This document shows, piece after piece, positions 930 through 48,279 of a stretch of 64,000 bases of DNA. The notes under the pieces were generated by a model. It searched no databases and had not been told where the DNA came from. It was given only the letters and a program-made list of their open reading frames with translations. Source of the stretch: Scenedesmus sp. PABB004 (Eukaryota). The translations under genes were made by a program, and so were the position numbers. The stretch is taken from positions 1 to 64,000 of the forward strand of contig JABVCE010000051.1 in NCBI GenBank assembly GCA_014905635.1, in the 5' to 3' direction. Position 1 is the stretch's first letter. Each line of letters opens with the position of its first letter.

Positions 930-3900
930 TCACCGGCTCACGGCTGCACGGCGCGACGCCGACGCCGCCGCCGCGCTGCGCGCGGCAGGGCTGCCCAGGT
1001 AGGCCACCACGTCGGCGGCGCCCACGCGCTTGGCCTCGGCCAGCGGCGTCGCGCCCCAACGGTCGGTGGCGGACAGCTCCGCGCCGCCCTCCTCCACCAG
1101 CAGCTTGACCTGCGCGGCGCGTGGGGTGGAGGGGGCGCACAAGCGTGAGTGCGGCCACGGGGCACGACCGAGCCCGCGGCCTGCACCGGCCGTGGATCGG
1201 CGGCGCGCCGCGCGCCAAGGGCGCACAAACCGCGGCCGCGGCCCTGAGCGCGCTGCTGGCCGCCGCCGGCCCGCCCGTCCCGCCGGCACGCACGGTGCTG
1301 AGCTTGCCCTCCGCCGCGGCGATGTGCAGCGGCGTGCGCTTGTCGTAGTCGCCCGCCGCCACGTCGGCGCCGGCGGCGATGTAGCGCCGCAGCAGCGCCT
1401 CCTCGCCCTCCAGCACCATGCCGCACAGCGCGCTCGCGAGCTCCGCGGGCGAGAGCTGCAGGCTCGCGCCCGCGTCGACGAGCTGCGCCAGCACGGCGTC
1501 GTGGCCCGCCTTGACCGCCTCCAGCAGCGCGCTGCCGCCGAGGTTGTCGCGCGCGTTGGGGTTGGCCCCCGCGCGCAGCAGCGCTGCCACGACCTCGCCG
1601 TGCCCTTGCGCCGCCGCGAGCATGAGCCCCGTGCGCTTGTCGTAGTCGCACGCGTCGGGCGGGCAGCCGCGCTCCAGCAGCCGCGCCACGCCCGCCGTGT
1701 CGCCGCCGCTCGCTGCGTTGAGCATGGCCTGCGCCTGCCAGAGCTGGAACTTGGTGGCGGCCGCGGCCGCGGCTTGCTCTGCGGAGTGTGGGGCCGTGGC
1801 GGGCAGCCGACGGTGAGCCAGCGCGGTGGAGGCAACGCGGCCGGCGCGGGCGGGCCCCGCATCACGGCCGGCCCCGGCCACAGGGCAGGCTGCGGCGGCT
1901 TGGGCCGGCCGCCGCCGCGGCAGCGCCGCCGCGCCCGGCGTGGCGCGCGCACCTGCCACGCGGGCGCCGAGGTACTCCACCACCGGCACGGCGCCGGCGC
2001 GGCGCGCCTCGTCGAGCGGCGTCTGGTCCCAGCGGTCCACGAGCGTCGCGTCGGCGTCGCCCACCTCGATCAGCAGCTTCACCTGCGCGACCGGCGGCGA
2101 GGAGCAGCCCGGGTGAGCGGAGCGCGAGGGCGCACACGTTGGGAGGGCGGCGCGCCACAGCGCAGCCAGCACCGCCCTGTGCCACACAGGGCCACGCGGT
2201 CGCGCCTCACCACCGGCAGGTTGCCGTCCGCGGCAGCGATGTGCAGCGCGGTGCGGCGGTCGTAGTCGATCGCGTTGACGTTGGCCCCCGCCAGCACGAG
2301 GCGGCGCAGCAGCTGCATGTCGCCGTCAAAGACCGCGGTGCACAGGTGCGCAGCGGTCTGCACGCCGGCCATAGCGAGGCGCGCCCCGGAGCGCTTGAGC
2401 AGCCTGGCGGGGCGGCAGGCAGGGCAGCCGTTGCCACCGCTGCAACTCCGCGCCGGCGCGCCGCGTCAAGGTGCTTGCAGCGCAACGCAGCGCGCGCGAG
2501 CTCACTCAATGGCTTCGTCGTGCCCCCCCTTGCACGCCTCCAGCAGCGCGCTGCCACCCATGTGGTCGGTGACGTTCACCGTCGCGCCGGCCGCGAGCAG
2601 CTGCCGCAGCGCGGGCGTGAAGCCCTTGGCGGCTGCCAGCATGAGCCCCGTGCGGCCGTCGTAGTCGCAGCAGTTGACATTGGTGCCCTCTTGCAGCATC
2701 TGGGCGCATGCGCGCACACAGCGGCAGCGGGCGGCGCCGGCGAGCGGCTCAGGAGCGTGTGCGCGGCCGAGGCGGCGGCGCAGTGCGGCTGGCCCAGAGC
2801 GGGCAGGCGCAGCACGGCTGCCGCGTGAGCGCCCGGCCGCGGCAGTGCCGCTCACGACGCGGATGCGGTCCAGGTTGCCGGCCGAGCAGGCGTTGAGGAA
2901 GGCGTTGGTGCGCTGCTGCTCCAGCCGCGCCTGCGTCTGCTTTGCGAGCGCGCGCACGCGCAGCAGGTTGGCCAGCACCTGCTGCTGGCCCGCGCGCAGC
3001 GGCATGCCACTGGAGTCAACCATGAGCGCCGACGGCGCGCGCGGGATGGGCAGGCCGTCCGCGACGCGCGCGCTGCCGGCCTCGGCCGACGCGTGCTTGT
3101 GCTCCAGGCCGCGCATGCTGCCAATGTCGCCCATGGCCTGAGCGCTCGCGCCGGGAAACTCGTCCTCCACCATCTGCGCGGCGACCCGTGGCGGCGGCGG
3201 CGCATCGGCCGACGCGGGCGCATGGGGCTGCTGGCACAGCCGGCCCTGCCAGCAACTTGCGCTTGCAGCGCTGGCTGGCTGGCCGCCGCAAGCGCACCTC
3301 CTCCGCGCGCGCCACCAGGTTTTCCATGACCTGGGCGCTGCTGATGGGGAACTCAGCCACGAGGCTGTTGTACAGCACGCGCGGCACCACCAGCACGCGG
3401 CACATGCCCATCGTGCGCACGGTCTGCGCCGCGGCGGCAGCGCGGTGGCGGCGTCGGCGACCACAGGCGGTCGCGGCAGCGGCGGCGCTGGCAGCGGCGA
3501 GCGCGCGTGCAGGCGCGACGCCGGCGCCGGCGCCGCACCTCCATGGACGCGCTCTCCGTGAAGAAGGCCATCTCGCCTGCGGCGTCGCCCGGGCCCAGGA
3601 AGCGGGTCGCGCCGCCGTGCACGCTCGCGCCGTCGGACGCGAGCAGCAGCTCCTCGGGGTGCCCCGTCGTCGCGAGCCCGCTGCCCCGCTCCGCGAGTGC
3701 GCCGCCGGCGACGACGACAAAGAGGTCGTTCACGTGGTCGCCGTCGCTGATGAGGTCGACCTGGCGCCCACACCCGCACACCCCGCGGGTCAGCGCGCCG
3801 GGCGGCGGCGCGCCGGGCGGCGGCGCGGCGGTGCCGCCGCCGCGCGGTGCCGCCGGCCGCCGCGGCGCGCACCTTGGGCATGAGCAGCTCCACCTTTGCC

Positions 3901-6469
3901 GTCGCCAGCAGGGCGTCAAGGAACTTTTGCTTCGCGCCGACAAAGAGCCAGCAGCTCGTGAGCGCGCCGTTGTAGAGGTGGCGCAGCACGCGGCGCCTGA
4001 TGGCGGTCGGGTACACGCCGAGCACCGCCTCGTCGCTGCTGTCCGCGCTGCTGAAGTGCAGGCGCAGGTGGCCCTTCATCGCAGACTTGAGCGTCTGCGG
4101 GGCGCGGCGGCGCCCCGGCGCGCTGGCTGGGATCGCTGCCGCAGCCCGGCTGCATGCGCGCGCGCGGCGCCCGCGCGCGCCTCACCCGGGGGACCTCGTG
4201 CGTAGTCGTGTAGGCCTCCAGCACGTTGAGCCGCGCCCTGCGAGCCGCACACGCGGTGGGAGCGCGCCGCCACCACAGGCGACGGCTGCGCCCCGTGCGC
4301 CGCCCGGGGCCCCACGCGCCGCCGCGCACCGCACCTGTACGCGCCCGTTTTCTCGTCGCCCTTGACCACGAGCAGCGTGATGGTGCCGATGATGTACGCG
4401 GCGACGCCGATGTTGATGAAGACGTACACGATCGTGAACACCGCCTCCGGCGTGCTGCGGGGGCGCGGCCGCGGCGTGCGTGGTGGCGCAGCGGCGTGCG
4501 TCAGTGCCGCGCCGCGGCGGCGCCTGGCGGCCCGGCTGCGTGCACGCGCGCGTGCGTGCCGCCGTGCGTCACCTGTACGCGTGAAAGTCGCCGTATCCGA
4601 CAGTTGCAAAGGTGATGATGGACCTGGCGGGGCGGGGCGGCCGCGCAGCGCGTCGGGGCGGCGCGCAGCAGCGCGGCCGAGCCGCGCCGCGTCGCGCCGC
4701 CGCCCGCGCTCGGCGCGCGCCCGGGGGCGCTGCTCACCAGTAGTAGCTGTACACGTAGCTGCGGGGCAGCGGCGGCGCGCGCGGCGGCGCGGCGGGGGCG
4801 TCAGCCAGCAGGGGTCGGCGCTGGCAGGAGGGGCGTGCAGCTTGCACAGCCGCGCTGCGCATGGGGCGAGCGGACCGCCCTGCCAGCGCAGCAGACCCAC
4901 CACTCCACGGCTGTCGCGGTGCCGATCCAGTCGCGCGCAGCGCCGACCCAGCTCGTGTCGGCAAACCCGCTCTGCTTGGCGATGTACCAAAAGATGCAGG
5001 CCGCCCAGTGGACGACGAAGAAGCACAGCTGCGGCGCGCACGCGGCGGGCGGGCGAGCTCGCGGGCGCGTGCGCGCGCCGTGTGCGCTGACTCCCCCGCC
5101 AGCCGCCAGCACGGCGACTCGCTCGGCCGGCCACGCACCGCAAAGTTGCGCACGAGCGTGATGACGACGAGCGAGATGGTCTGGTTGTACGTCAGCGCGC
5201 GCACCCAGCCGTACAGGCGGTACGCGCGGCCCAGGCGCAGCAGGCGCAGCAGGCTCACGTACCTGCGCCACGGCGCAGTCAGCCGCGGTGCGCGCGTGGT
5301 GCGCCCGCTCAGCCTGCTGCCAGGCCAGCCAGCGGGCTGCCGGCGCGCGCCGGCGGCGCGGCGCGCGGCCCGCGCGCACCAGGCCGTGGTGTTGTTGCTC
5401 TGCTGGAGGCCCATGGCGCCAAGGACGATCCAATCGAAGGGTATTGTCGTCACCTGACCGGACGCGCGGCGGGCACGCAGGCAGCGTCGTCAGCGCGTGC
5501 GGCCCGCGGCGCCGCGGCGCAGCGTGCTGCCGCTGCCAGCTGGCCGCCGCGAGCGCGCGGCCCACCAGGTCGACCCAGAGCCTCCAGCGCGCGTAGTGGC
5601 GCGCGATGCTGGGCAGGTCTGTGACGAGCTCGCCGTCCTCGTAGTAGGCGACAAAAAAGTTGAGCAGCACGTCGACGGAGTACACAGAGGTGAAGATGAT
5701 GGCCAGGATGGTGTCGGGCGCGGTCAGCGGGCTGCGCGGTCGCGCGGAGGCGGCCGTGAGCCGGCGGGGCAGGCCGTGGGCGTGCAGCGGCGGGCGCAGC
5801 CGTGCGGCGCACGCACTGCAGGCCGGGGTAGTGCGAGAAGGCCAGGGAGTAGGGCTCCACAAACAGCGTGACCACGACGGTGCACAGAATGAACGTCCAC
5901 CAGCACTGCGCCCTGCGGAGCGGCGGCGCGGCGGCGCAGCGCGCGGGTCGGCAGCTGCCGCGGCGCGCGGGTCGGCGGCTGCCAGCAGTCGCTGCCACTG
6001 GTTCTCCGCGCCGTGCACGCGCCGCACATGATGTCGTGGGGGTGGATGATGTGCCGCGGCAGCGCCTGGTCCTCCTCGAGCTGCAGCTGCCGGCGCGACT
6101 TGAACGTCGTGGAGAGCTGCTGGAACTGCGGGCCGCGCCGCACGGTCGGCGGTTTGAGCATCCAGACGAGCCCCTGCCGCAGCCGCCGCAGCCGCCGCAG
6201 CCGCCGCGGCCGCCGCCGCAGCGCGCCACGCGGGCCGCGCGCCGCCGGACCTGCGCGGCGGCCCGCTGGTTCACCACGCCGCGGTTGGCGCTGCTGCTGC
6301 TCATGCGGTGGAGCTGCTTGGACGACGATAGCGATGAGGAGCGGTCCAGGGAGCCGCCTGGCGCCTCGCTTGCGGCCTTGTGGGGCGACGTGCGGGGCAG
6401 GAGCGTGGCCACCGCCGGCGCGCGCCGCTGCCTGTCTCCCCCATCTGTCATGCTGCGCTCGCGCGCCAT
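930..6469 (-). CDS. Plant-type Shaker voltage-gated K+ channel (6TM + cNMP-binding domain + ankyrin repeats), paralogue 1, multi-exon
   Basis: Spliced exons give IIHPHD, S4 LLRLLRLGRAYR, pore SIITFATVGYGDFHAY (TVGYGD at 4587-4604), C-linker MKGHLRLHF...IRRRVLRHLY, cNBD GEMAFF and several ankyrin repeats (DYDGRTGLMLAA, DYDKRTPLHIAA, DRWGATPL). Resembles the SKOR/GORK/AKT architecture. Confidence 0.9.
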
Positions 6470-6935: not shown

Positions 6936-9900
6936 TCAGACGCCGCCGCCGGTCGGCGCCAGCGGCGACCGGCCGCGCGCGGCCGCCAGGCGCGCGGCTG
7001 CGGCGGCCTCTTCCGCGGCGGGGCTGCCCAGGTAGGCCACCACGTCGGCGGCGCCCACGCGCTTGGCCTCGGCCAGCGGCGTCGCTCCCCAGCGGTCGGC
7101 GGCGGACAGCTCCGCGCCGCCCTCCTCCACCAGCAGCTTGACCTGCGCGTGTGCGCGCACGGGTGAGAAGCTGCACAGCCGCGCGGCCGCAGCGCTGCGC
7201 TCGCGGTCTGCAACACACCATGTGCAGCTTGCCGGTGGCGGCAGCCATGTGCAGCGGCGTCTGCTGGTTGTAGTCGCCCGCCGAGACGTTCGCGCCGGCG
7301 GCAATGTAGGCGCGCAGCAGGTCGGCGCGCTCGGCGAGCACCATGCCGCACAGCGCGCTCGCGAGCTCCGCGGGCGAGAGCTGCAGGCTCGCGCCCGCGT
7401 CGACGAGCTGCGCCAGCACGGCGTCGTGGCCCGCCTTGACCGCCTCCAGCAGCGCGCTGCCGCCGAGGTTGTCGCGCGCGTTGGGGTTGGCCCCCGCGCG
7501 CAGCAGCGCTGCCACGACCTCGCCGTGCCCTTGCGCCGCCGCGAGCATGAGCCCCGTGCGCTTGTCGTAGTCGCACGCGTCGGGCGGGCAGCCGCGCTCC
7601 AGCAGCCGCGCCACGCCCGCCGTGTCGCCGCCGCTCGCTGCGTTGAGCATGGCCTGCGCCTGCCAGAGCTGGAACTTGGTGGCGGCCGCGGCCGCGGCTT
7701 GCTCTGCGGAGTGTGGGGCCGTGGCGGGCAGCCGACGGTGAGCCAGCGCGGTGGAGGCAACGCGGCCGGCGCGGGCGGGCCCCGCATCACGGCCGGCCCC
7801 GGCCACAGGGCAGGCTGCGGCGGCTTGGGCCGGCCGCCGCCGCGGCAGCGCCGCCGCGCCCGGCGTGGCGCGCGCACCTGCCACGCGGGCGCCGAGGTAC
7901 TCCACCACCGGCACGGCGCCGGCGCGGCGCGCCTCGTCGAGCGGCGTCTGGTCCCAGCGGTCCACGAGCGTCGCGTCGGCGTCGCCCACCTCGATCAGCA
8001 GCTTCACCTGCGCGACCGGCGGCGAGGAGCAGCCCGGGTGAGCGGCGGCGCACGCTGGGAGGGCTGCTGCCAGCGCAAGCAGTGGGGCCGGCAGCGCTGC
8101 CTCACTGCCGGCACGTTGCCGTCCGCGGCAGCGATGTGCAGTGCGGTGCGCTTGTCATAGTCCTCGGCGTTGACGGGAGCGCCGGCTGTCAGCAGGCGGC
8201 GCAGCAGCCCGCTGTTGCCCTCGTGGGCGGCCGAGCAAAGCAGCGCCGCCGCGTTTACGCCAGACACCAACAGCCGCGCGCCAGCGGCCTGCAGAGCCCT
8301 GCAGGCGAAGTGGTGAGGCGGCGGTTGCGTGAGGCTACAGGAAGCCTCGCACGGGGGCTTGGCAGCAGGATCTGCCTGCGCGTCGCGTCTGCGCGCCGCC
8401 GCGCAGGTGGTTGGAGAGAGCCGTGCGGCGGCAAGCTCACTCGATGGCGTCGTCGTGCCCCGCCTTGCACGCCTCCAGCAGCGCGCTGCCGCCCATGTGG
8501 TCGGTGACGTTCACGGCCGCGCCGGCCGCGAGCAGCTGCCGCAGCGCGGGCGTGAAGCCCTTGGCGGCTGCCAGCATGAGCCCCGTGCGGCCGTCGTAGT
8601 CGCAGCAGTTGACATTGGTGCCCTCTTGCAGCATCTGGGCGCATGCGCGCACACAGCGGCAGCGGGCGGCGCCGGCGAGCAGCTCAGGAGCGTGTGCGCG
8701 GCCGAGGCGGCGGCGCAGTGCGGCTGGCCCAGAGCGGGCAGGCGCAGCACGGCTGCCGCGTGAGCGCCCGGCCGCGGCAGCGCCGCTCACGACGCGGATG
8801 CGGTCCAGGTTGCCGGCCGAGCAGGCGTTGAGGAAGGCGTTGGTGCGCTGCTGCTCCAGCCGCGCCTGCGTCTGCTTTGCGAGCGCGCGCACGCGCAGCA
8901 GGTTGGCCAGCACCTGCTGCTGCCCCGCGCGCAGCGGCGCGCCAGTGCCCGGTTCGTGCGCCAGGGCAGCCAACAGGCCGCCGCCGGCCAGCTGCTGCGG
9001 CGGCGTGACCGGGCGTGTGCTCGGGGCGCTCGGCGGCGTGCGCCACCCCGGCGTGCCCCAGCCGCTGCTGACGCTGTCGCCTGCGCCACCGAGCTCTGGC
9101 GAGGCAAACTTGAGCTCCAGGCCCCTGCCCTCCAGCTCCGCCAGGATGGGCCCCGTGGCGGGGTCAGGCAGCTCGCACGCGATCATCTGCGGCGGCGGTC
9201 CAGCGGCAGGCGGGGAGCTGCTCGAGGGCCTGCGCTTACAGCGCCGCCGCCGCGGCGCGCGTGCCCAGCAGCGTGCCGCACCTCCTCCGCGCGCGCCACC
9301 AGGTTTTCCATGACCTGGGCGCTACTGATGGGGAACGCAGCTGCCAGCGTGTCGTAGAGCACCCGCGGCACCACCAGCACGCGGCACATGCCCACTGTGC
9401 GCACGTACTGGGGCAGCGGCGACGGCAGGCGCAGCGGCGGCGGACGGTGTGGCGGGGGGCCGCTGCTGTCGGCGCTGCAGTGCCGCCGCGCAGCAGCGGC
9501 GAGGCCTCGGTGCAGCGATCCACGCGCGGCCGCGCACCTCGGTGCAGGGCGCCTCTGTGAAGAAGGCCATCTCCCCCGCGGTGTCGCCCGGGCCCAGCAC
9601 GCGCGTGGAGCCGCCGTGCACGCTCGCGTCGCCGTCCAGCAGGGGCGCCGCCTCGCCGCCCGGCGCTGCGCGCTCGCAGGCTGCCACGCCGGCGAGGACG
9701 ATCTGCAGCTCGTTCACGCTGTCGCCCGCGCTCACGATGTCCACCTGCGCGCCCATGCCGCCGCGCGGTGGGCGCGCGCGCGCCGCGTGGCGCCCAGTGC
9801 TGACGGGCGGGCGGCGCGGCGCGGCGCGGCGCGGCGCGGCGGGGGCGGGGGCGGGGGCACGCCTTTGGCATGAAGAGCTCGACCTTGGCGCTGAGCAGCA

Positions 9901-12044
9901 GGGCGTCGATGAACTTCTGCTTGGCGCCGCGGAAGAGCCAGCAGCTCGTGAGCGCGCCGTTGTAGAGGTGGCGCAGCACGCGGCGCCGGATGGTGGTCGG
10001 ATACACGCCGAGCACCGCCTCGTCGCTGCTCTCCGCGCTGCTGAAGTGCAGGCGCAGGTGGCCCTTCATCGCCGCGAGCAGGGGCGGCGGGATGCCGTGC
10101 GTGGCCGCAAAGTCGTCGAGCACGATGAGGCTCTCCCTGTACGCGCCGGTGCGCTTCTCGTTCTCCACCACGAGCAGCACGCTGGTCGCCACAAAGTAGG
10201 CAGAGACGCCTAGGGAGAAAAACATGAACACCACGATGAACGCCGCCTCGGGCACGCTGCGCGCGGCGCGGCGCGGCGCGGCGCGGCCATGGGCGGACGG
10301 GGCTGCTGCGCCGCGGCGGCGCGCGGCGCGGGGCGCCCCCGCGGTCGGCTGCGCGGTCAGCCCCGCTGCACGCGCGCGCACGCGTGCGTGCACGGCCCCG
10401 GTCGTCACCTGTAGGCGTGGAGGTCGCCGTAGCCGACGGTTGAGAAGGATATGATGCTGAAGTACATGCTGTACACCCACTTGTCCAGCGCGCTGCCCTC
10501 GCCCACCCACTCCATGTTGGCACCGACCCAGCTCGTGTCGGCAAACCCACTCTGCTTGGCGATGTACCACAGCCCCGTGGCGCCCCAGTGCACGGTGAAA
10601 AAGCACAGCTGCGCGGCGCGAGCGGGCGCGCCGTGCTGCGCTGGGCGGCGGCGCGCACGGCGCCCGCAGCCGTCGCTAGCGCCGCGGGGGGCGGCGCACC
10701 GCACCGCAAAGTTGCGTGTGAGCGTGACCACCATCAGGCTGAGCGTCTGGTTGTACGTCAGCGCGCGCACCCAGCCGTACAGGCGGTACGCACGGCCCAG
10801 GCGCAGCAGGCGCAGCAGGCTCACATACCTGCGCCACGGCGCAGTCAGCCGCGGTGCGCGCATGGTGCGCGCGCTCAGCCTGCTGCCAGGCCAGCCAGCG
10901 GGCTGCCAGCGCGCGCCGGCGGCGCGGCGCGCGGCCCGCGCGCACCAGGCCGTGGTGTTGTTGCTCTGCTGGAGGCCCATGGCGCCCAGGACGATCCAAT
11001 CGAAGGGTATCGTCGTTACCTGACCGGACGCGCGGCGGGCACGCAGGCAGCGCCGTCAGCGCGTGCGGCGCAGCGTGCTGCCGCTGCCAGCTGGCCGCGC
11101 GCGCCCCCAGCCCGACCTCCCCGCACCACGTCGGCCGCGAGGCGGCCCGAGGCCGCGTAGTGGCGCGCGATGCTGGGCAGGTCTGTGACGAGCTCGCCGC
11201 CGGGCGCATAGTAGGCAACAAAAAAGTTGAGCAGCACGTCCCCCGCGTACACCAGGCCGTACCCCACCGCAAACAGCGTGTCCGGCGAGCTCAGGGGGCT
11301 GCGCGGCCGCGGCGGCGGCGTCAACGGTGGCGCGCGGGTGGGCGACGCGGCGGCGGCGGCGGCGGCTCACTAGAGGCCCGGGTAGGCCGAGAAGGCGAGG
11401 TTGAAGGGCTCCATGAACAGCGTGACCACGACGGTGCACAGAATGAACGTCCACCAGCACTGCGCGCTGCGGGGCGGGGCGGCAGCGCGGCGGCGCGGCG
11501 CGGGGGTCGGCGGCTGCCAGGAGTCGCTGCCACTGGTCTCCGCGCCGTGCGCGCGCCGCACATGATGTCGTGGGGGTGGATGATGTGCCGCGGCAGCGCC
11601 TGGTCCTCCTCCAGCTGCAGCTGCCGGCGCGACTTGTACGTCGCGGAGAGCTCTTGATACTGCGGGGCCCGCGGCGCGCGCAGCTAGGGCTTCGGACCCG
11701 CCGCCCTCAGCGGCCGCGCACGCGCGGGAGCGCGGCACGACCGTCAGGCGCACCTTTTCCACTGCCCGCGAGTGCATCAGGCCACGCCCAAAGCTCGGCG
11801 CGCGCAGGACGGCGGCGGGCGGGCGGCGCGCGCTCGCGCTCGACCCGCTCGCCCAGCGCTGCTCCTCCGGGTCCAGATCGCTGCCATCGCGGTCGGCCTT
11901 TGCGCCACGGCCGTTCAACAGGCCGCGAAGAAAGTTGACGGCGTCCCGTGTGCGCGCCGCGACGCCGCCGCCATTGGCAGCGGCGCTGCTCTCGCTGCCG
12001 CCGCCGCGCGCCGGCGCGGAGCCGCCAAGCAGCGGCTGCTGCAT
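6936..12044 (-). CDS. Plant-type Shaker K+ channel with cNBD and ankyrin repeats, paralogue 2, multi-exon
   Basis: Pore YFSIISFSTVGYGDLHAY (TVGYGD at 10423-10440), same S4 exon as paralogue 1, GEMAFF, ankyrin repeats. Tandem with paralogue 1. Confidence 0.9.
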
Positions 12045-15042: not shown

Positions 15043-15501
15043 TCCGCCGCCGCATCCGCTGATCCCGTCGGGCGGCAACGGTCGAGCGCCGTCGAGCCGC
15101 TGGGCCCTGGCGCCGTGCCACGGTCCACCGCTGGCTCCTGTTGTGACTGCAGCACCCTGGCCGCGTGTCCGCACTCTCCCTCGCCGAATGCGCGCTCCCC
15201 TGCGCGCTGAGAGGCGGGAGCAGCAGCAAAGGCCGGAGCAGCAGCCCGCGAGGCCGCTGCAGGGAGACAGGGCCGGCGCCCGTGCCTGCATCCAGCGCAC
15301 GTGTCAGGGTGCCGCCCCCAGCCGGCTGCAGCGCCGGGCCGCGCTGCACAGCGCCATCGACGCTCGCACTCGCGCGAGCGCGCTGATCGGCGCGCGAGCG
15401 GCGTGGACCGTGCAGGCCGCTGCACAGGGGCGCGTGCACAGGGAGGGCGCAGCAGCGGCAGCAGCGGCAGCAGCAGCAGCTGGGCACCAGCGGTGCCCAC
15501 C

Positions 15502-17332
15502 ATGGCCGACGACGCAGCGAAGCAGGGCCCTGACCCGGCCACGGTCATCCAGGTCTCCTGTGGCAGCTCGCACACCGTCGCCCTGCTGAGTGCGTGCGCT
15601 GCCGCGCGACTGCTGCGCAGCGGCGGCGCGAGCAGCGGCGCGCCGGCGACGGGGCATCGCGCCGATGCCGCGCCACGCCCCCCGCCCCGCGCGCAGACTG
15701 CAACGTGGTGGCCTCCTGGGGCCGCGGCGAGGACGGGCAGCTGGGGCACGGCGACGCGGAGCAGCTCGACGCGCCCAAGGCGGTGCACGCGCTGCTGGAC
15801 AAGGACGTCAGCAGCGTCGTGTGCGGCGCCGAGTACACCGTCGCGGTCAGCGCCAAGCACCGCACCGTCTACAGCTGGGGCTGGTGAGCGCCCCCGCGCA
15901 CGCACGCGCCCCGGCGGCGCCGCGCAGCGGCGCGAAGGGGCGCCGCCGACGCCGCGCCGCGCGCGCCCGCGCGCCGCAGGGGCGACTTTGGCCGCCTGGG
16001 GCACGGGAGCAACACGGACGTGTTTGTGCCGCGGCCGATCGCGTTTTTCGACGGCCTTGCCGTGCGCGCGGTCGCGTGCGGCGACACGCACACGCTCGTG
16101 TGCACCGACGACGGCGCGCTCTACACGTTTGGGCGCAACCAGAACGGCCAGCTCGGCCTGGGCACCACGAGCGACGTCCTGTCGCCGCAGCGCGTCGACG
16201 CGCTCAAGGGCAAGGCCGTGGTCAGCGTCGCGGCGGGCGCGGAGCACAGCGTCGCGGCGACGAGCGGCGGCGAGGTCTTCGCGTGGGGCTGGGGCCGCTA
16301 CGGCAACCTCGGCGACGGCGAGCGCCACGACCGCCACGCGCCCGTGCTCGTCGCGGGCCTGGCTGGTGTGTCGGTGACACACGTCGCGTGCGGCTGGCGG
16401 CACAGCGCCGCCGTGAGCGCGCAGGGGTGCCTGTGGGCGTGGGGCTGGAGCAAGTACGGCCAGCTCGGCATGGGCGACACCGAGTGAGCGGCGGCGGGGG
16501 CCGCGGGGGGTGCGGGCGGCGCGCCGTGCGCCCGCGCGCGCCCGCACGCCTCGCCCGGCGCTTGCGCGGACCTGGGCAGCCGCTGATGCACCGCGCCGCG
16601 CCGCGCCGCGCAGGGACCGGCTGGTGCCGGCCGAGGTGTCGGGCCTGTCGGGGCGCGGCGTGCTGCAGATCGCGGGCGGCTGGCGCCACACGATGGCCTT
16701 GGACGACCAGGGCGCGGTGTGGGCGTGGGGCTGGAACAAGTTTGGCCAGCTCGGTGAGCACGCGTGGGCGCGGGCACTCACGCTGGCGCCCGCCCGGCCG
16801 CGCCGCGCGCGCACTCAGCGCCGCCCGACGCCGCCCGCCCGCGCGCGCACGCCGCCGTGCCCCCGCAGGCCTCGGCCACACCGCCGACCAGGCGGCGCCC
16901 GTGGCGGTCGAGGCGCTCGCGGGGCACCCCATCGCGCTGCTGGCGTGCGGCTGGCGGCACACCGTGGCGGTGGGCCGGCGCGGCGAGGTGTACTCGTGGG
17001 GCCGCGGCGTCAACGGGCAGCTCGGCCACAGCGCCGAGGCGGACGAGAGCCTGCCGCGCCTGCTCGCGCCGCTCTGTCGCGGCGCGGCGTCGCGCGCGGG
17101 GCTGGTGGCCACTGCCACCGCGCAGGGCGGCTACGTCGCGCCCGCTGACCGCTACGCCGTCGTGCCCAACGGCGCGCCGGGCGGCGGCGGGGAGGCGGGG
17201 GCCGAGCTGCCGCCCGGCGGCGCGGCCGCGCGCGGCCTCGACACCGGCGACGGCGACGGCGGCCCGCCCGCCAAGCGCGCGCACGTCGCTGCCGGGTCGA
17301 GCGTGGACGACGCGGCGGTGCCGGGGAGCTGA
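15502..17332 (+). CDS. UVR8: UV-B photoreceptor UVR8 (RCC1 beta-propeller), 5 exons
   Basis: SWGRGEDGQLGHGD, WGWGDFGRLGHG, three GWRH[ST] motifs (CGWRHS, GGWRHT, CGWRHT) and the C-terminal RYAVVP COP1-binding VP motif. Exons about 15502-15589, 15697-15883, 15980-16483, 16614-16754, 16869-17332. Confidence 0.95.
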
Positions 17333-17870: not shown

Positions 17871-19734
17871 ATGCCGCTGCAGCGCGATCGCGATCTGGAG
17901 GCCGGCCGCGCCGCGGCGGCAGCAGCAGCGGCGCCGGCGCGGCAGCAGGCGGCAGAGGCGCAGCAGCGCGCGCACCAGGGAACCGGCGCGCTGCTCCGCG
18001 GCCTGCTGCGCATCCAGGAGGCGCCGGCGGAGGGCCCGGCGGGCCGGCAGGGCTCCGGCACCGGCGCCGGCACGGCGGAGGCCAAGCGCGCGCACGAGCT
18101 CGAGTCGCAGGCGGCCGTGCTGGGCAAGGGCGCCGCCGCGCAGGTGCGCCCGCGGGCGCGCCGCCGCCGCCGCGCGCGCGGCGCCCGGCCGCGGGCCGCT
18201 GCTGACGCGGGGGCCCGCGCCGCGGCGGGCGCGCCGCGCTGCCGCGCTGCGCGCAGATGGCGGAGCTCATGTTTGACGACGTCGGCAAGCGCCAGGTCGC
18301 GGTGGAGGAGGCCTTCGTGCTGCAGCGCGGCGTCATACACCCGTTCAACACCTTGTGAGACGCCCCGCGTCGCCCGTGCCGCCCGCGGCGCCGCCGCCCG
18401 CGCCCGCGGCGCCGCCGCCGCCCGCGCGCGCGGCGCCCCGACCCGCGCGCCGCCCCGCCGCCGCCGCCGCGCAGCTTCCGCGTGTGGTGGTGGGTGACCA
18501 TCGCCGCCGCCGCGGTGACCGGGTGGCTCATCCCCTACATGATCGCCTTCCTCCCCGGCAGCGACGGGTGCGGGCCCACGCGGCGGGGGGTCGCGGGGCG
18601 CTCGCGGCGGGGTGCGCCACGCGGCGGCCGGCCCGCGCCAGGCAGAGGCTGACGCGCGGGCCGCCGCCGCGCCCGCGGCGCGCGCAGCAAGGGCACGGCG
18701 GCGTACGCGGTCGAGGCGTGCCTGCTGGCCATCTTCCTGGGCGACATGCTCAGCAGGCGCGCGCGCGGCAGCGGCGGCGCCCGCCCTCCGCCCGCGCCCC
18801 TGCGCGGCGCGCGCGCCGCGCCCCCCCCCCCCCCTCACCCGCACCCGCACCCGCGCGCCCCTTGATCTGCCTGCCGCCCGCCCGCCCGCCCGCCGCGCAG
18901 CTTCTTTGTCGCGCGGTACGAGGGCGGCGTGCTCGTCGGCGAGCGGGCGCGCCTGGCGGCGATATACTTTCGCTTCCGCTTCTGGTGGGACGTGCTGACC
19001 GTGTTCCCCTGGGACTGGATCGTGCTCAGCGCGCTGGGCCTGCTCGGCAGCGGCACCGTGCGCGCGCGCTTTGTGAGCCTGCTGGGCCTGCTCAAGCTGG
19101 GGCGCATGTACCGCATCGACCGCCTCTACCGCCACCTCGAGTTCAACCTCGCGCTGCCCCTCGTCGTCACCAAGCTCACGCGCGTCGCCACGTACGGCTT
19201 CTTCCTCGTCCACTGGGCCGGCTGCTGCTTCTGGTACATCGCCGAGCAGGAGGCCGGCCTCGGCGGCGGCAGCTGGCTCACCGCGCTCAAGACCGACCCC
19301 GCGCCCCACCTGCCCGTCAACGCCTGGAGCGTGTGGGAGCGCTACACCTTTGCGGGTGCGTGGGCGCGGCGTGGCGGGCGTGGTGGCTGGGCGGGCGGGT
19401 GTGGTGGGTGCGTGGCTGGGGGCCGCCCCGCGCCGCGCGCCGCGCGTGGCGCCTCGGCCCGCAGGCGGCGTGGGGCCCTCTCCCGCCACCCCTCACCCCC
19501 CCCCACCCCGCTCACCCCCTCCTCTCCCCCTCCTCTCCCCCTCCTCCTCTCCCCTCTTCGCCAGTGTGGTGGGCGGTGGCCACCTTTTACCAGCTCGATG
19601 CCGGCCCGGGGCTGGGCCCGGTCACCATGACAGAGGTGCGGCGGCAGCGGCGGGGCGGGGCCGCGCGCCCCCGCGGCCGCGCTGGCCGCCTCCACGCTGA
19701 GCGCCGCCGCCCCCCCCCCCCCCCTCTCTGTGTG

Positions 19735-19766
<32 letters not shown>

Positions 19767-19770
19767 CTTG

Positions 19771-19850
<80 letters not shown>

Positions 19851-22148
19851 CCGCCACGGGCGCCAGGTCATCTTCACCATGGTCTTCATCGCCTGCAACA
19901 TCCTGCTGTGGGCGTGGATGATCGGCAGCATCTCCCTGCTCGTCGCCCGCGCCGACGAGAGCAGCGCCAAGTACCGGCACCGCATGCACGCGCTCGACCG
20001 CTACGGCCGCGACAAGGGCCTGCCGCAGGACATGAAGGAGCTCATCGAGGAGCACCTGCGCCTCCACTTCACGAGCAACCAGGAGGCGGACGAGCAGATG
20101 CTCGCGACGCTGCCGACCACGCTGCGCCGCCGCGTGCTGCGCCACCTCTACGGCGCGCAGCTGCAGCGCTGCTGGCTGCTGGCGGGCGTCAAGCCCAAGT
20201 TCTTCGACGCCCTGCTCGGCTGCGCGCGGCTCGAGACCTTCATGCCCCAGGCGCGGCCCGCCGCGCAGCGCAGCGCCGCCCCGCGCGCTGCGCCGCCCGC
20301 GCGCCGCGCGGCGCCCGCCCGTCTCACCCCCCCCCCCCCCTCTCCCCTGTCCGCTCGCGTGCCTCCCCCGCCGCAGGTTGAGCTGCTGGCGGAGGGTGAC
20401 GAGGTGAACGAGCTCATGGTCGTCGTCGCGGGCTACCTGGAGGTCTTCTCCTCCAGCGCGGCGGCAGAGGAGAAGGACCGCGAGTCGCTGTGAGCCTCCC
20501 CCGCGCCGGGGCGGCCGGGGGTCCCAGCAGCGCCGCGCGCGGCGCGGCGCCGCGGCCTGAGCCGCCGCCGCCGACGCGCGCGCTCGCACCTGGGCGCAGG
20601 CTGGACGCGGCGCGGTACCAGCGGCGCCCGAGCGAGATCTTCCGTGACATGGCTGGCGGCAAGAAGATGGGCGCGGGCAGCGGCTACTGCATGCTGGGGC
20701 CGGGCGACCCCGTGGGCGAGACCGCCTTTTTCACCGAGGTCCCGCAGCTCGAGGTGACGACTCAACGCCCGCGCGCCGCGCCGCCGGCTGGTCTGGGGGA
20801 GCGCCCGCCGCCCGACCCACGCCCGGCCCACGCCCGCCGCCTGCCCGCCGCCCGGCGCCGCGCGCGCGGCGCGCAGGTGGTTCGCAGCCTGACGGTGTGC
20901 CGCGTGCTGGTCGTGCCGCGGCCCGCGTACAGCGCGCTCGCGGCAGACTTCCCCATCAGCACCACCACCCTGCTGGAGGCGCTGCAAAAGAACGCAGAGA
21001 CGGTGACGCGCGGCGCGGCACGCGGGCCCGCCTGTCCTGCGCCCGCCCGCCGGCGCGCCCGTTCCCCGCGCCGCGTGCCCAGCCCGCCCCCCTCCCCGCG
21101 GCGGCAGGTCGTGTCCGCCGAGTTCCGCGGCGGCGCCGCGAGCCGGCTGCTGCGCGGCAGCCTCGTGGCGACGCTGCCGGGGCTGAGCTACCAGCACACC
21201 AGCCCCGAGACCATGGGCGCCGACACGGTCGCGGGCGCCGGCGCGGACGTGCTCAACGCGTCGTCCTGGCGCGGCACAAACATGAGCGGCGCCGCGTCCA
21301 TGGGTACGGCGCCGCCAAGGCGGCCGCGCCCCGCCGCGCCGCCGCCGCCGCGCCCTCCGCCGCGCCTCTGCGCCTCTGCGCGGCGCCGACGCGCCCGCGC
21401 CGCCCCGACCTCGGCAGGCGGGCTGTCGGTGCGTCAGCAGCAGGTGGTGGGCAACCTGCAGCGCATCCGCGCGGTCGTGAAGCACCACGTCGCCCAGGCC
21501 GACGAGACGCGCACTGGGCAGTTCCTCTCCGCCGCGGCCAAGGGCGAGACGGAGCGCATCAAGCTCCTGCTGCAGCAGGGATATAACCCAAACACGGGTG
21601 AAGACGGCCGCATGCGCGCCCGCGCGCCCGCACGCACGCCCGCGCCGCGCCCCCTGCGCGCCGCCGCGCCCCCTCGCAGCGCGCCGCTGCGCCCTCTCAG
21701 CGCCCCACCGCGCCGCGCCCCCGCCGCGCCGCCCGCCGGCGCGCAGCCGACTACGACAAGCGCACCGCGCTCATGCTCGCGGCGGCGCAGGGCCACCGCG
21801 GCGTGGTGGACATGCTGCTCGCGGTGAACGCCAACGTCAACGCGCGCGACGTGCGCGGCGCTACGGCGCTGCTCGAGGCGGCGCGCGCGGGCTGGGACAG
21901 CATCCTCGATACGCTCATGCTGCGCGGCGCGAAGCACGGCCTGGACGACCAGGCGCAGGCGCAGGCGCTCTCGGGCGCGGTCAGCCGCGGCGACATCACG
22001 CAGCTGCGCCACCTGCTGGCGGCGGGCTGCGACGCCAACTGCGCCGACTACGATGCGCGCACGCCCCTGCACGTCGCGGCGGCGGAGAGCAACCTCAACG
22101 CGGTGCGCCGCGGCCTGGCCGCGCTCGGCGGCGCCGCCGCATGGCTGC

Positions 22149-22247
<99 letters not shown>

Positions 22248-23454
22248 GGGTGGGGGCAGGGGGGCGGCGCGGGCGCCGAGGGCTGCGGCGCGCGGGCGCA
22301 GCACGCGCCTGAGCCGCCGCGCCGCGGGCGCGCGCGCAGACGCGCGTGCTGGTGGAGGTCGGCCGCGCGTCGCTGGGCCTGACGAGCAGGCAGGGCTGGA
22401 CGCCGCTCGACGAGGCGCGCAGCGCCGGCGCGACGGCGGTGGTGGAGTACCTGGAGCGCCTGGTGAGGCCGCGCAGCGCCGGGGGCGGCGCGGCACGCGG
22501 CGCGGCGCGGCACGCAGCGCGGCGCCCACGCGCCCGCCGCGCGCCCGTCCGCGCGCAGGTGCCTCCGGAGGAGGCGGCCGCGGCCAAGGCGCGCGCCGAG
22601 GCGCGGCGCGCCGACGCCATGCTGCACGCCGCGTCGGACGGCGACCTGGCGGGCGTGGCGCGGCTGCTGGAGCGCGGCTGCCCGCCTGACGCGTGCGACT
22701 ACGACAAGCGCACGGGGCTCATGCTCGCGGCGGCGCACGGGCACGGCGAGGTCGTGGCGGCGCTGCTGCGCGCGGGGGCCAACCCCAACGCGCGCGACAA
22801 CCTCGGCGGCAGCGCGCTGCTGGAGGCGGTCAAGGCGGGCCACGACGCCGTGCTGGCGCAGCTCGTCGACGCGGGCGCGAGCCTGCAGCTCTCGCCCGCG
22901 GAGCTCGCGAGCGCGCTGTGCGGCATGGTGCTGGAGGGCGAGGAGGCGCTGCTGCGGCGCTACATCGCCGCCGGCGCCGACGTGGCGGCGGGCGACTACG
23001 ACAAGCGCACGCCGCTGCACATCGCCGCGGCGGAGGGCAAGCTCAGCACCGTGCGTGCCGGGCGGGGCGGGCGGGCCGGCGGCGGCCAGCAGCGCGCTCA
23101 GGGCCGCGGCCGCGGTTTGTGCGCCCTTGGCGCGCGGCGCGCCGCCGATCCACGGCCGGTGCAGGCCGCGGGCTCGGTCGTGCCCCGTGGCCGCACTCAC
23201 GCTTGTGCGCCCCCTCCACCCCACGCGCCGCGCAGGTCAAGCTGCTGGTGGAGGAGGGCGGCGCGGAGCTGTCCGCCACCGACCGTTGGGGCGCGACGCC
23301 GCTGGCCGAGGCCAAGCGCGTGGGCGCCGCCGACGTGGTGGCCTACCTGGGCAGCCCCGCCGCCGGCGAGGCGGCGGCGGCCGCCGCTGCCGCCGCGCTG
23401 CGCAAGCTGAGCAGCAGCCGCTTCCAGGCCGCGCCCGACAGCGGCAGCTCGTAG
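17871..23454 (+). CDS. Shaker-like channel paralogue 3 (6TM + cNBD + ankyrins) with a non-canonical pore loop
   Basis: VIHPFN, S4 LLGLLKLGRMYR, C-linker EHLRLHF...LRRRVLRHLY, GETAFF, ankyrin repeats. The pore exon 19565-19635 reads VWWAVATFYQLDAGPGLGPVTMTE, with no GYG. Confidence 0.85.
19733..19852. repeat. (CCTG)n tetranucleotide microsatellite in an intron
   Basis: About 30 tandem cctg units with one ttg variant. Confidence 0.95.
22164..22244. repeat. (GT)n microsatellite in an intron
   Basis: About 40 GT units. Confidence 0.95.
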
Positions 23455-27889: not shown

Positions 27890-30800
27890 ATGCGGCGCAC
27901 TCGCGCGGCCGGCGCGCGGCCGGCGCCCGCCGCAACGCCAATGTTTTCGCTCGCGGAGCTCCCGGCCGCGTGGCGCGCGCAGCTGGTCGCCCACCTGTCG
28001 GCGGCGTCCAAGCTCGCGCTGCGGGCGAGCTGCCGCGCGCTGCGCGCCGAGGTCGATGCCGCCGCCGGCGCGGCGCTGTCGCTGCGCCTCACGGGGCGGC
28101 AGCCGACGATCGCGGCGCTGGCGCGCGCGGGCCTGCTCGCCCGCGTGGGCCGGCTCGACCTGGCGGGCGCGGGGCGCGGCGCGGTCACGGTCGGCGGCCC
28201 GCCGGCGGAGCTGGCGGGCGCGCTGCCGGCGCTGCGCGCCGCGTCGCTGGCGAATCACCAAGGCGGCGTTGTGGAGCTGCTCGCGGGCGCGGCGCCGGGG
28301 CTGTCGGCGCTGAGCTTGGAGGTCGTGTCGCACACGTCCGCTGTGGTCGGCATGCTCACCGCACTACCGGCGCTGGACGAGTTGTCCCTCACGCTGCGCA
28401 ACGACGGGTGGGCGGCGCCGCCGGCGGGGGGCCCGCACGCCGCCGCCGCCGCTGCAGCTGGCACCAGCGCGCGCCGCGCCGGCTCACCCCCACCCCCCCC
28501 CCCCCTCCCCCTCCCTCGCCCCCGCCGCAGCTGGGCGCGCGCGTGCGGCTCGCTGGGCGCGCTGCGCCAGCTCCGCAGCCTCGCCATCCTCGGCCGGCCC
28601 CTGTGCGACATCACTGCCACCAGCTGGGTGTCGGCCCCGTGGCTCGAGGCCAACGTCGCGCCGCTGTCTTGCCTCACCGCACTGGCCGTCACGCCCTGGA
28701 TCAAGGCGGAGCCTGGCGGTGAGCGCGGGGCGCGGCCTCCTTCCTCGCCGCCGGCAGCGCGGCCGCGCGCGCACGCCCCGCGCTCACGCCGCGCGCCCGC
28801 CCACGCACGCAGCGCCGGGCATGACCGTGTCGCGGCTGCCCCTCGCGAGCCTGGCGAGCCTGGCGCTGCCCTACGCGACAGGCAAGGCGGGCCCCGGCGC
28901 GTCCGCGGCGCTGCTGCGCCAGCTCGCCGGCGTCACGGGCCTCACGTCGCTGAACCTGGGGCTGCACGAGCCCGACTGGGACGTGAGCGGGCTGGCCCGC
29001 CTCACGGGCCTCGTGTCCCTGGAGCTGCACAACCCGTTCCTCAAGGGCGGCTGGGGGCTGGAGCCGACGCGCGCCGCGCACCTCGCGCCGCTCGCGGCCG
29101 CGCGCCACCTCACGGCCCTCGTCATCAGCACGCTCGACACCCCCGGCCCGGCAGACCTGCTCGACGCGGCGGGCCTGCTGCCGCCCGGCGCGCCGGCCGT
29201 GGGCGCGGCGAAAACCTGGGCCGCCGCGGCGGGAGCGCTGGAGGGCCTGGGCGGGCCGATGCTGCACATCGTCAACGCGCTCGCGCTCGAGGCGGTCGCC
29301 GCCGGCGTGGCGCGCGAGGCCGGCGGCCAGCACTCGCAGGTGGCCGCCGCCGCCACGGCGCTGCAGGCCGAGGCGCTCGCCACCGCGCGCGCGTACGCGC
29401 AGCCGTGGGGCGTGGCGCTGCAGAGCGCCAGCGCGGCGTGGGGCCCCGCGACCGCCACCCCACCGCCGCGTCCGCGCTGGCAGCGCCGCTGGGCGCGCCC
29501 CCCGCGGCGCCGCCCGGCAACGCGGACGCGCACTCCGGCGCCACGGCGGGGCTGGCGGCGCGTCCGGGCGCGGGGGTTGACCCCCACCTGCTGGCGTCCG
29601 TGGTGCAGGCGGCGCACGCGCTCGCGGCGGCGGTGGCGCCCGTGGCCGCAGCCAGCGCCAGCGCCGCGCTGCCCGCCATTGGGGAGCTGCTCGCGCAGGC
29701 GGCCGCCGGCGCCGGCGCGCTGCCCGCGGCGGCGGTCGTGGCGGCGGGCGTGGCCGCCGGCCAGGCGGGCTACGTGCCGGTGCCGGCCGTGCCGCCGCCC
29801 CCGCTGCCGCCGGCGCAGCTGCTCGAGCTGGCGGTGGCGGGCGGCGCGGGCCCGGGCGGCAGCGCGCCGCCCGCGCTGCCGTGCGTGTCGCCAGAGGTGG
29901 TGATCAACGCGGCCGCGCGCGGCGCTGCCGACGCGGCGCGCCTGCTGGTCGCCGAGGTGCCCTGCCTGCCCGGCCTGCGCCGGCTGACCGTCGGCACCAC
30001 GCACGGCGGCATGCTGAGCGGGCTGAGCCTCGCTGCGCTCGCGCCCAACCTGACCTGCCTGGAGGACCTGAGCGAGATGGGCGAGCTGCCCGCGGCCTGC
30101 GCTGACGTGCTGGGCGGCCTCACCGCGCTGGAGCTGCTCTCGGTCAACGTCGACACGCTGCAGCTCCACGCGCGGCACGCGTCGCTCACCAGGCTGGGCG
30201 CGCTCGCGCTGGGCGGCGACGGCGCGCCTGGCGACAGCGCCGGCGCCGGCGCCGCGCCGCCGACGCAGGCGGCAGCGGGCGCGCCCGGCCGGCGCGTGAC
30301 GCGGCAGCAGCGGCGGCAGCAGGAGCAGGTGGAGCAGGGGCAGCAGCTCGCCGAGCAGGCGGTGCCGCCGCCGCCGCCGCCGCCGCCGCTGCCGCCGCCG
30401 GCGGCGCTCTGGGACGGCGCGGACTTTGGCGGCGAGTGGCGGCTGGGCATGCCGCGCGCGGCCACCGGCCTGGGCCCGGCGCTGGTCAACCCGCGCTGGG
30501 CGGCGCTGGGGCGGCTGCGCGCGCTGCGGCTGCTCATGCTGGGCCATATATCACAGGGCATGCTGCCCGAGGGCATCGCGCTGCCCCGCATCCCCGGCGT
30601 GACCCGGCTCGAGCTCTGCTCCGCCTTTGGCGGCCGGGCTGACTACCGGGCCACGTACAGCATCGTCGAGGACCCGCTGCTGTGGCAGAACCAGGTCGGC
30701 ACGCGGGCGCTGGTCGTTGACGGCGGCGTGCTGCTCGGAGGCTTCCTGGTCGATGACGGCATGGCCCAGCTCCTCCGCACGCGCCTCACGGCGCTCGAGT

Positions 30801-32863: not shown

Positions 32864-32923
32864 GCTGTGATTTCATATACAGCCAACCTGTTTGCGATTG
32901 GCACCGGACTCTCGGGTCCGCAG

Positions 32924-32975
32924 GCGCTCCTAGTGTAGTGGTTATCATCTGACCCTCCCACGGTCAGGACCCGGG
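32924..32975 (+). pseudogene. 5' half of tRNA-Gly(CCC), copy B, truncated before the T loop
   Basis: GCGCTCC...GGTCAGGACCCGGG, then unrelated sequence. No TTCGA B box and no 3' acceptor strand. Confidence 0.9.
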
Positions 32976-42206: not shown

Positions 42207-42278
42207 GCGCTCCTAGTGTAGTGGTTATCATCTGACTCTCCCAAGGTCAGGACCCGGGTTCGATTCCCGGGGGGCGCA
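42207..42278 (+). tRNA. tRNA-Gly-CCC: tRNA-Gly(CCC), copy C
   Basis: 72-nt cloverleaf GCGCTCC...TGACT-CTCCCAA-GGTCA...GGTTCGATTCC...GGGCGCA. A TATA-like tttatatata lies at about 42165, CAA is immediately upstream, and TTTT follows at 42280-42283. Confidence 0.93.

Positions 42279-48233: not shown

Positions 48234-48279
<46 letters not shown>

Follow-up and report, generated by a model that had tools for sequence, protein, structure and literature searches.

The stretch of DNA considered here (hereafter the window) spans positions 1 to 64,000 of contig JABVCE010000051.1 from Scenedesmus sp. PABB004 (assembly GCA_014905635.1). It carries three genes for Shaker-like channels, of which channels 1 and 2 have a canonical K+ selectivity filter and channel 3 has the stretch QLDAGPG in its place. 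The channel 3 gene lies on the plus strand at 17871..23454, where a spliced model guided by the orthologues P0003 (Hariotina reticulata) and P0002 (Tetradesmus deserticola) comprises 16 exons and 1133 codons, begins with an ATG at 17871, has a stop codon that ends at 23454, and contains no internal stops or frameshifts. The parts of the predicted protein follow the order cytoplasmic N-terminus, segments S1–S6, C-linker, cyclic nucleoside monophosphate (cNMP)-binding-type domain, and two ankyrin domains. The GC content is 0.965 at third codon positions versus 0.862 in the introns. Thirteen of the 15 introns are of the GT-AG type, mostly of the form GTG[CA].../...G[CG]CAG, while the remaining two have GC donors (18757 and 20251).

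All exons of channel 3 are read from the plus strand. Exon 5 (18901..19355) encodes, by orthologue alignment, the end of S2/S3, S4, the S4–S5 linker, S5, the turret, and the start of the pore helix. Within it, S4 (RFVSLLGLLKLGRMYRIDRLYRHLEF, 19067-19144) presents five K/R at regular spacing in the pattern K-x-x-R-x-x-R-x-x-R-x-x-R. The 71-nt pore exon, exon 6 (19565..19635), completes the pore helix and continues through the filter-equivalent loop into the post-filter segment, reading (V)WWAVATFYQLDAGPGLGPVTMTE, and is flanked by two GT-AG introns located by a splice-site scan: intron 4 (19356..19564, 209 nt) and intron 5 (19636..19866, 231 nt). Exon 7 (19867..20250), which by orthologue alignment encodes S6 and the C-linker in 128 amino acids, is 86.7% identical to P0002 and 82.8% to P0003. 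Alignment to P0003 and P0002 assigns exons 8–10 (20377..21002, with introns 20490-20599 and 20754-20876 between them) to the cNMP-binding-type domain and exons 12–16 (21418..23454) to the two ankyrin-repeat domains and the C-terminus. The channel 3 exons are 77-87% identical to P0002 and to P0036, an orthologue from Tetradesmus obliquus. Two simple repeats fall into introns, namely a (CTGC)n microsatellite in intron 5 directly 3′ of the pore exon (~19727-19851) and a long (GT)n in intron 13 (22160-22245).

Pfam scans of channel 3 exons 18901-19355 and 19867-20250, taken singly, returned no families, and the domain calls for channel 3 therefore rest on its orthologues. PF00520 (Ion_trans) scores 38.4 bits in P0036 and 27.4 bits in P0002 at a cut-off of 25. 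PF00027 (cNMP-binding-type) scores 35.8 bits in P0003 and 33.2 bits in P0002 at a cut-off of 27.5; channel 3 exons 7–10 align there and may encode a ligand-binding module. Ankyrin families occur in P0003 and P0002 in two blocks with E-values of 1e-33 to 1e-50, to which channel 3 exons 12–16 align. The orthologue profiles and the 1133-codon model bear out the claim, made in a preliminary description of this DNA, that apart from its pore the gene is intact (S4, C-linker, cNMP-binding-type domain, ankyrins, no stops). By sequence, channel 3 is assigned to the plant Shaker-type (AKT/SKOR-like) branch of the CNBD-channel superfamily. The public model of P0003 contains 33 residues (~606-638) that have no counterpart in channel 3, which has intron 10 at this point, or in the other orthologues, and that probably represent an unspliced intron.

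The borders of exon 6 are an acceptor (...cgccag/TG) at 19564/19565 and a donor (GAG/gtgcgg) at 19635/19636, and both sites conform to those of the gene’s remaining introns. The G at 19355 completes the Val codon, and the join of exons 5 and 6 then reads VWWAVATFYQLDAGPGLGPVTMTE. A splice-site scan scored against P0003 placed the introns on either side at precisely 19356-19564 and 19636-19866, and tblastn aligned the exon to the P0003 pore with 15 identities in 25 residues (E=3e-5). Mapped column by column to canonical relatives, the codons for QLDAGPG (19591..19611) stand in place of T-V-G-Y-G-(insertion)-D. The initial observation of an AG/GT-bounded exon at 19565..19635 with a replaced filter thus holds for the coordinates, the borders, and the peptide alike, as does the observation that no GYG-coding exon is visible between S5 and S6. 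When all six frames were searched for G[YFL]G, the plus strand at 19300-19900 yielded only the GLG inside exon 6’s own GPGLGP, and the canonical relative P0005, used as a tblastn query, matched no further pore-like segment between S5 and S6. Skipping of exon 6 would shift the reading frame because the exon is 71 nt long. The K+ channel signature T-x-G-[YF]-G is replaced by Q-L-D-A-G in channel 3 and occurs in none of the 11 sequences of its clade; judged by its sequence, channel 3 should not be filed as a K+ channel.

The odd pore is shared. Word-index searches, which scored the 8000 candidates with the most words in common and gave 7 and 8 matches, recovered P0002, P0003, and P0004 with a read-through of exons 6–8 as the query, and P0009–P0011 in a second search. 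Matches P0006–P0008 were discarded owing to their low-complexity likeness to the read-through intron. A HMMER scan of 1.84 billion representatives with exon 7 (S6/C-linker) returned 683 matches at E≤1e-3, the best 150 of which were examined. The group assembled in this way includes P0002, a transcript in a cluster with five transcript-derived members; P0003, a gene model; P0036 and P0167 from T. obliquus (WIA21180.1 and WIA41473.1, both annotated “hypothetical protein”); the transcripts P0004 and P0172 from Enallax costatus; and the genomic open reading frame (ORF) fragments P0038, P0053, P0054, P0070, and P0170. Hariotina and Enallax belong to the Scenedesmaceae (taxonomy checked), and the named clade members are annotated only as hypothetical or domain-containing proteins. 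Ten sequences besides channel 3 carry the pattern Y-[QAM]-[LM]-[SGND]-[AST]-[GDE]-(H/P)-x-[LF]-x-P-x-T-x-x-E, which answers the call for orthologues with the same pore; the species include T. obliquus, T. deserticola, E. costatus, and H. reticulata.

Counted by alignment column over the 11 sequences, channel 3 included, the loop has a composition of its own. The residue before the canonical Thr is Tyr in 11/11, where canonical relatives have Ala. The Thr position holds Q in four, A in six, and M in one; the Val position holds L in four and M in seven; the first Gly position holds S in six, G in three, N in one, and D in one; the Tyr position holds A in nine, S in one, and T in one; and the second Gly position holds G in nine, D in one, and E in one. 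An inserted residue follows in some members (H in three, P in one, none in seven), and the post-filter segment reads [LF]-x-P-x-T-x-x-E, with P, T, and E each in 11/11. Bulky, aromatic, and basic residues are absent from the G-Y-G positions of all 11 sequences, which argues for constraint rather than free drift. The channel 3 version, QLDAGPG, is the most derived of the clade, with the sole Asp at the first Gly (1/11) and the sole Pro insertion. Since that Asp is found in 1/11 only, a Ca2+-favoring Asp ring would not be a conserved trait. On sequence evidence, filter loss is common to a whole clade in Scenedesmaceae-type algae, has a distinct pore signature, and is not a one-off.

These data bear directly on the view that channel 3 is a decaying or mis-modelled gene, i.e., that a recent lesion is turning it into a pseudogene or that another exon or splice form restores GYG. 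The view draws on the derived state of the channel 3 pore within its clade and on introns 5 and 6, which are both multiples of three without an in-frame stop. The removal of intron 5 was called on the basis of splice signals and of orthologues in which pore and S6 are contiguous with no insertion. Against decay or mis-modelling stand a frame that is open for 1133 codons and 16 exons, a signature found in 11 sequences that include transcripts of two species, and the plus frames between S5 and S6, which hold no further G[YFL]G beyond the one in GPGLGP. The position of intron 4, just before V-W/Y-W-A-V, is common to the genomic ORF fragments P0054, P0070, and P0170, which begin there. In the genomic fragments, the pore and S6 occupy a single exon that starts at the intron position of channel 3 exon 6, so exon choice cannot restore GYG in those species. 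The transcripts P0002 (T. deserticola) and P0172 (E. costatus) join the non-GYG pore directly to S5 and S6. The proposed check for transcripts that use a GYG-restoring exon accordingly found, in the orthologues of two species, transcripts that keep the non-GYG pore, and these back the channel 3 splice form indirectly. Alignments of channel 3 to four long orthologues span 907-1117 residues and give identities of 69-76%. Such identity also speaks against decay and, as far as sequence comparison reaches, answers the question of neutral evolution raised at the outset with conservation, not drift. Sequence comparison thus largely refutes decay or mis-modelling, which is very improbable, and shows channel 3 to be an intact gene with a hard-wired odd pore, a real variant of a predicted channel and not a broken gene.

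Two trees place the clade among its relatives. The supports quoted come from an IQ-TREE quick search and are Shimodaira–Hasegawa-like approximate likelihood ratio test (SH-aLRT) values only. The first tree (66 rows, S5-to-C-linker region) groups channel 3 with P0002 and P0003 at 99% SH-aLRT, has Monoraphidium minutum P0011, with the pore S-L-G-G-G-D, as their sister at 97%, and groups channels 1 and 2 with the canonical P0005 and P0023. For the second tree (62 rows), P0167 and P0172 were added, the long-branch rows P0134, P0133, P0012, P0145, and P0105 and the pore-less P0046 were dropped, and the pore-loop columns were removed. The clade, now of five members, is still recovered at 99% SH-aLRT with P0011 as sister at 97%, and its stem branch measures 0.49 changes per site versus 0.04-0.17 for the end branches. 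Monoraphidium belongs to the Selenastraceae (taxonomy checked); because it lies outside the Scenedesmaceae and has a Tyr-less pore, the loss of the Tyr predates the Scenedesmaceae clade. The separate tree positions further indicate that channel 3 and channels 1 and 2 are old paralogues rather than recent duplicates.

Conservation across the clade is uneven. Given as mean pairwise identity among four clade members unless seven are stated, S4 is the most conserved segment (0.91), followed by the S4–S5 linker and S5 (0.87), the pore helix (0.81), S6 (0.79, or 0.82 with seven sequences), the post-filter segment (0.60-0.62), and the turret (0.38). The seven filter-equivalent residues come to 0.22 (0.33 with seven sequences). 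The C-linker value of 0.58 is set aside, since the truncated P0036 lowers it. In ordinary K+ channels, no part is better conserved than the filter. Despite their variability, the filter-equivalent residues of the clade never leave the small, polar, and acidic classes, and a hydrophobic residue is kept at the Val position. The alignments show that the subfamily is evidently under purifying selection everywhere but at a few filter-equivalent residues. From sequence, channel 3 is predicted to be a member of a conserved plant-Shaker-type subfamily in Scenedesmaceae-type algae, whose subunits combine six transmembrane helices and an S4 sensor with a C-linker, a cNMP-binding-type domain, and a pair of ankyrin domains.

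The same profile could be produced by a non-conducting voltage or ligand sensor, in which the scaffold would act as a membrane-potential or cNMP switch through the C-linker, cNMP-binding-type, and ankyrin domains and ion flow would be irrelevant. Such a sensor would account for S4 as the most conserved segment, for cytoplasmic domains conserved over ~700 residues, and for the variable filter. It sits less well with a pore helix and an S6 that are about as conserved as S5 (0.79-0.82), neither of which a pure sensor would obviously need, and is considered improbable.

In fold and sequence, the closest known systems are plant Shaker-type channels. A phmmer search of the Protein Data Bank (PDB) with P0036 ranked SKOR first (5e-28), followed by GORK, KAT1, and AKT1 (~1e-23) and AtKC1/KAT3 (~3e-18), with hERG and HCN1 (~1e-16; HCN1 5e-16) and CNGA1 (1.6e-14) lower. 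HMMER aligned AMSAGD of P0036 onto TVGYGD of SKOR without a gap. The AlphaFold2 model of P0036, built from a 63-sequence alignment, has a mean predicted local distance difference test score (pLDDT) of 87 and a predicted template modelling score of 0.79. It comprises a pore helix (279-296), an extended loop (297-306, block pLDDT 87-94), and S6 from 307. Its best Foldseek matches are AKT1, GORK, SKOR, and KAT1 (TM-score 0.61-0.64, query-normalized). The clade thus resembles SKOR, GORK, KAT1, and AKT1 in sequence, in fold, and in the order of S1–S6, C-linker, cNMP-binding-type, and ankyrin parts, and differs from them by the replaced TVGYGD and a second ankyrin domain; the channel 3 stretch QLDAGPG is one residue longer than the SKOR filter.

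The CNBD-channel superfamily also takes in animal CNG channels and plant CNGCs, both of which have likewise lost the K+ motif clade-wide. TIGE is found clade-wide in animal CNG channels, which are non-selective cation channels (PMC7576140), while “AND” replaces GYG in Arabidopsis CNGC2 and plant CNGCs are described as non-selective cation channels (PMC3362136). The two groups are, however, far more distant from P0036 in sequence (CNGA1 1.6e-14 versus SKOR 5e-28), keep their filter conserved within their clade, and lack an ankyrin tail, whereas the channel 3 clade is the opposite on the last two counts. The clade filter differs from TIGE, and both the tree and the PDB ranking place channel 3 with Shaker-type channels and not with CNG/CNGC; the plant CNGC motif was not scanned.

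The two canonical neighbors lie on the minus strand, channel 1 at 963..6141 with the pore …TFATVGYGDFHAY at ~4598 and channel 2 at 6977..11680 with the pore …SFSTVGYGDLHAY at ~10434 (gene ends approximate). A six-frame scan reads these minus-strand pores as ...ITFATVGYGDFHAY (channel 1, ~4598) and ...ISFSTVGYGDLHAY (channel 2, ~10434), and thereby recovers the canonical K+ filter attributed to each in the preliminary description. Channel 2 has its own peculiarity in S6 (~10258-9860, minus strand), where the Asn and the I-I-G-T Gly that channel 1 and its relatives conserve have been lost (...FFSLGVSAYFVATSVLL versus ...FINIGVAAYIIGTITLL in channel 1); its end branch in the tree measures 0.37-0.38 versus 0.09-0.10 for channel 1. 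Open frames on the plus strand at ~15500-16500 carry RCC1-like repeats (…YTFGRNQNGQLGLGTT…, …YSWGW…), which indicates an unrelated gene between channels 2 and 3. The GC content is 71-83% in 2-kb windows of the 64-kb window, and (CCCTAAA)n telomere-type repeats occupy positions 1-230, degenerating towards 230. These repeats, the GC-rich composition, and the short GT-AG introns identify the start of the window as a chromosome end of a green alga, and channels 1 and 2 are subtelomeric. Elsewhere in the window, an inverted duplication of ~1.7 kb pairs 29819-31543 with 47126-48824 (97.5% identity), and further repeats pair 41780-42258 with 32486-32975 (92%) and 40462-40717 with 32199-32443 (89%).

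An ankyrin tail common to channel 3 and its two neighbors had been noted at the start, and nucleotide alignment confirms it. The stretch 22616..23381 (plus strand), which takes in intron 15 together with the bulk of exons 15 and 16, is 97.4-97.7% identical over 767-768 nt to 1728-964 (minus strand) of channel 1, and channel 2 matches at 7653-7226 (minus strand) with ~91% DNA identity. At the protein level, the tails of the two canonical paralogues are 97% and 88% identical to that of channel 3. Compared with the second ankyrin domain of its clade orthologues, the channel 3 tail shows 72-77% identity, whereas the tails of canonical relatives match it at only 42-53%, so the copying would have run from the channel 3 lineage into channels 1 and 2. 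The pattern points to gene conversion that spread the channel-3-type tail to both, recently in the case of channel 1, and channels 1 and 2 appear, by the same alignments, to be chimeric. A shared tail may mean shared regulators; as sequence evidence for co-assembly of channels 1–3 it would be weak.

The reading tentatively preferred here, at somewhat below even odds, is that channel 3 would be a subunit that senses voltage and lines a widened cation pore lacking K+ selectivity, alone or with GYG paralogues. The subunit would still tetramerize and would still be driven by its S4, S6, and C-linker machinery. The four-site K+ filter could not form, because the site-4 Thr and the Tyr are lost, as is the first Gly in most members. 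The hydrophobic Val-equivalent, the second Gly, and L-x-P-x-T-x-x-E would instead hold the loop in a filter-like trace, with a lining of small, polar, or acidic residues. The widened pore would then conduct cations without favoring K+, by analogy with CNG and NaK channels, and might do so by itself or when mixed with GYG paralogues. It is established that K+ selectivity requires all four sites, that the change of the site-4 Thr to Ala abolishes selectivity, and that NaK and CNG, with fewer sites, are non-selective (PMC12658365). The characterized clade-level motif losses, in animal CNG and plant CNGC, gave rise to non-selective cation channels (PMC7576140, PMC3362136). The lean towards a non-K+-selective pore is slight and comes from a loop that keeps the filter-like in/out pattern and invariant residues of its own, from the lack of gained bulky or basic residues, and from S4, S6, and C-linker segments that are conserved as in a working gated channel.

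Several points weigh against such a pore. In sliding-window conservation, the filter-equivalent segment is roughly as variable as surface loops, and even closely related members do not agree in its sequence or its length, with a one-residue insertion in 4/11. Working non-selective filters such as the TIGE of CNG are conserved throughout the clade that has them (PMC7576140). The high pLDDT of the loop may be borrowed from canonical channels, which make up half of the alignment, and a monomer model is uninformative on conduction. Lesions of a similar kind have also been reported to be lethal to the pore: Kir2.1 carrying G144D, G144A, or G144S reaches the surface normally and acts as a dominant negative (PMC12658365), and GIRK2 loses function and becomes dominant-negative when its GYG is replaced by AAA or GLG (PMC2232885). 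The variability of the filter within the clade and the lethal precedents in Kir2.1 and GIRK2 favor a silent subunit.

A silent, regulatory, or poison subunit would carry no current alone but would join GYG paralogues, e.g., channels 1 and 2, and lower or reshape their K+ current. Taken by itself this is rather unlikely, yet it is nearly as likely as the non-selective pore. The changes of the first Gly to D/S/N and of the Tyr to A/S/T match those of the non-functional, dominant-negative, surface-expressed Kir2.1 G144D/A/S and GIRK2 AAA/GLG. At 0.22-0.33, the filter-equivalent residues are the least conserved in the membrane core bar the turret, which would fit a non-coordinating loop, as would the change in loop length among clade members. 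S4, S5, S6, and the C-linker are strongly conserved, as in modulatory subunits that tune gating, and two canonical paralogues with 97% and 88% identical tail protein lie 6-17 kb away.

These points are offset by others. The known silent subunits AtKC1 and KvS, which have conducting paralogues and are believed to be inactive by themselves, retain GYG, so the heteromer still conducts; channel 3 as a silent subunit would be more radical than either, a natural counterpart of the engineered dominant-negative pore mutants, and we know of no natural filter-less regulatory subunit. The GIRK2 and Kir2.1 mutants show the same kind of change as the clade (the first Gly to Asp/Ser, the Tyr to a small residue) but are single lesions in canonical channels, whereas here a whole clade has a remodelled loop with an invariant Y before the filter and P, T, and E downstream. 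A poison loop would not need its G-Y-G positions limited to small, polar, and acidic residues in 11/11. The shared tail is accounted for by subtelomeric gene conversion, and channel 3 and channels 1 and 2 fall into different, old subclades. By analogy, both outcomes, a non-selective pore and a silent subunit, have precedent.

Loss of GYG is not confined to this clade in the wider family. G[YF]G is present in 32/62 aligned homologues and absent from 30/62, all drawn from the best 150 of the 683 matches, and the 62-row tree calls for at least three changes; an estimate of at least five from the 66-row tree was set aside because that tree included long-branch rows. Other GYG-less chlorophyte groups have GDG/GDA-type pores (Pleodorina, Edaphochlamys, Chlamydomonas sp. 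UWO 241), SNE-type pores (Dunaliella), and QYG-type pores (Botryococcus), and their proteins are annotated only as hypothetical or CNBD-containing. Across homologues P0022–P0031, P0043, P0049–P0051, P0018, P0020, and P0032, the GYG-less types read G-D-G/A/N, S-N-E, E/Q-Y-G, and E-W-N. These clades belong to the same wider family as the channel 3 clade but are separate from it, with different pores and proteins of 1300-1700 residues, whereas the channel 3 clade is nested beside canonical ankyrin-bearing channels.

In the literature, a survey of plant and algal K+ channels screened with a motif demanding G-[YFL]-G (PMC3410407); surveys of this kind would have missed the channel 3 clade and the other GYG-less chlorophyte clades. 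One source treats the standing of CNGC-like genes in algae as unsettled (PMC3362136). A literature search found no paper on this clade or on GYG-less ankyrin-bearing Shaker-type channels in green algae. A survey of Kv-like and CNBD channels treats strong filter deviations as rare and limited to individual channels, with animal CNG as the sole clade-level exception (PMC7576140).

Filter loss in the superfamily is already well known from CNG channels and CNGCs, and the conserved filter-less clade is a novelty within a well-known kind of channel. A further possibility, which is doubtful at present, is that the clade forms a selected filter-less Shaker-type family whose members serve either as dominant-negative or gain-control partners of K+ uptake channels or as channels with a short Y-x-[LM]-x-A-G pore of unusual selectivity. 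If such a family is real, it would be a clade-level exception to the view, taken in PMC7576140, that only animal CNG channels deviate as a clade. A plant-type K+ channel lineage that has lost its filter while its other modules stay strongly constrained is a natural experiment on the rest of the Shaker-type channel. Expression and knock-out work is feasible, since a full-length orthologue (WIA41473.1) is available from T. obliquus, which is grown in culture.

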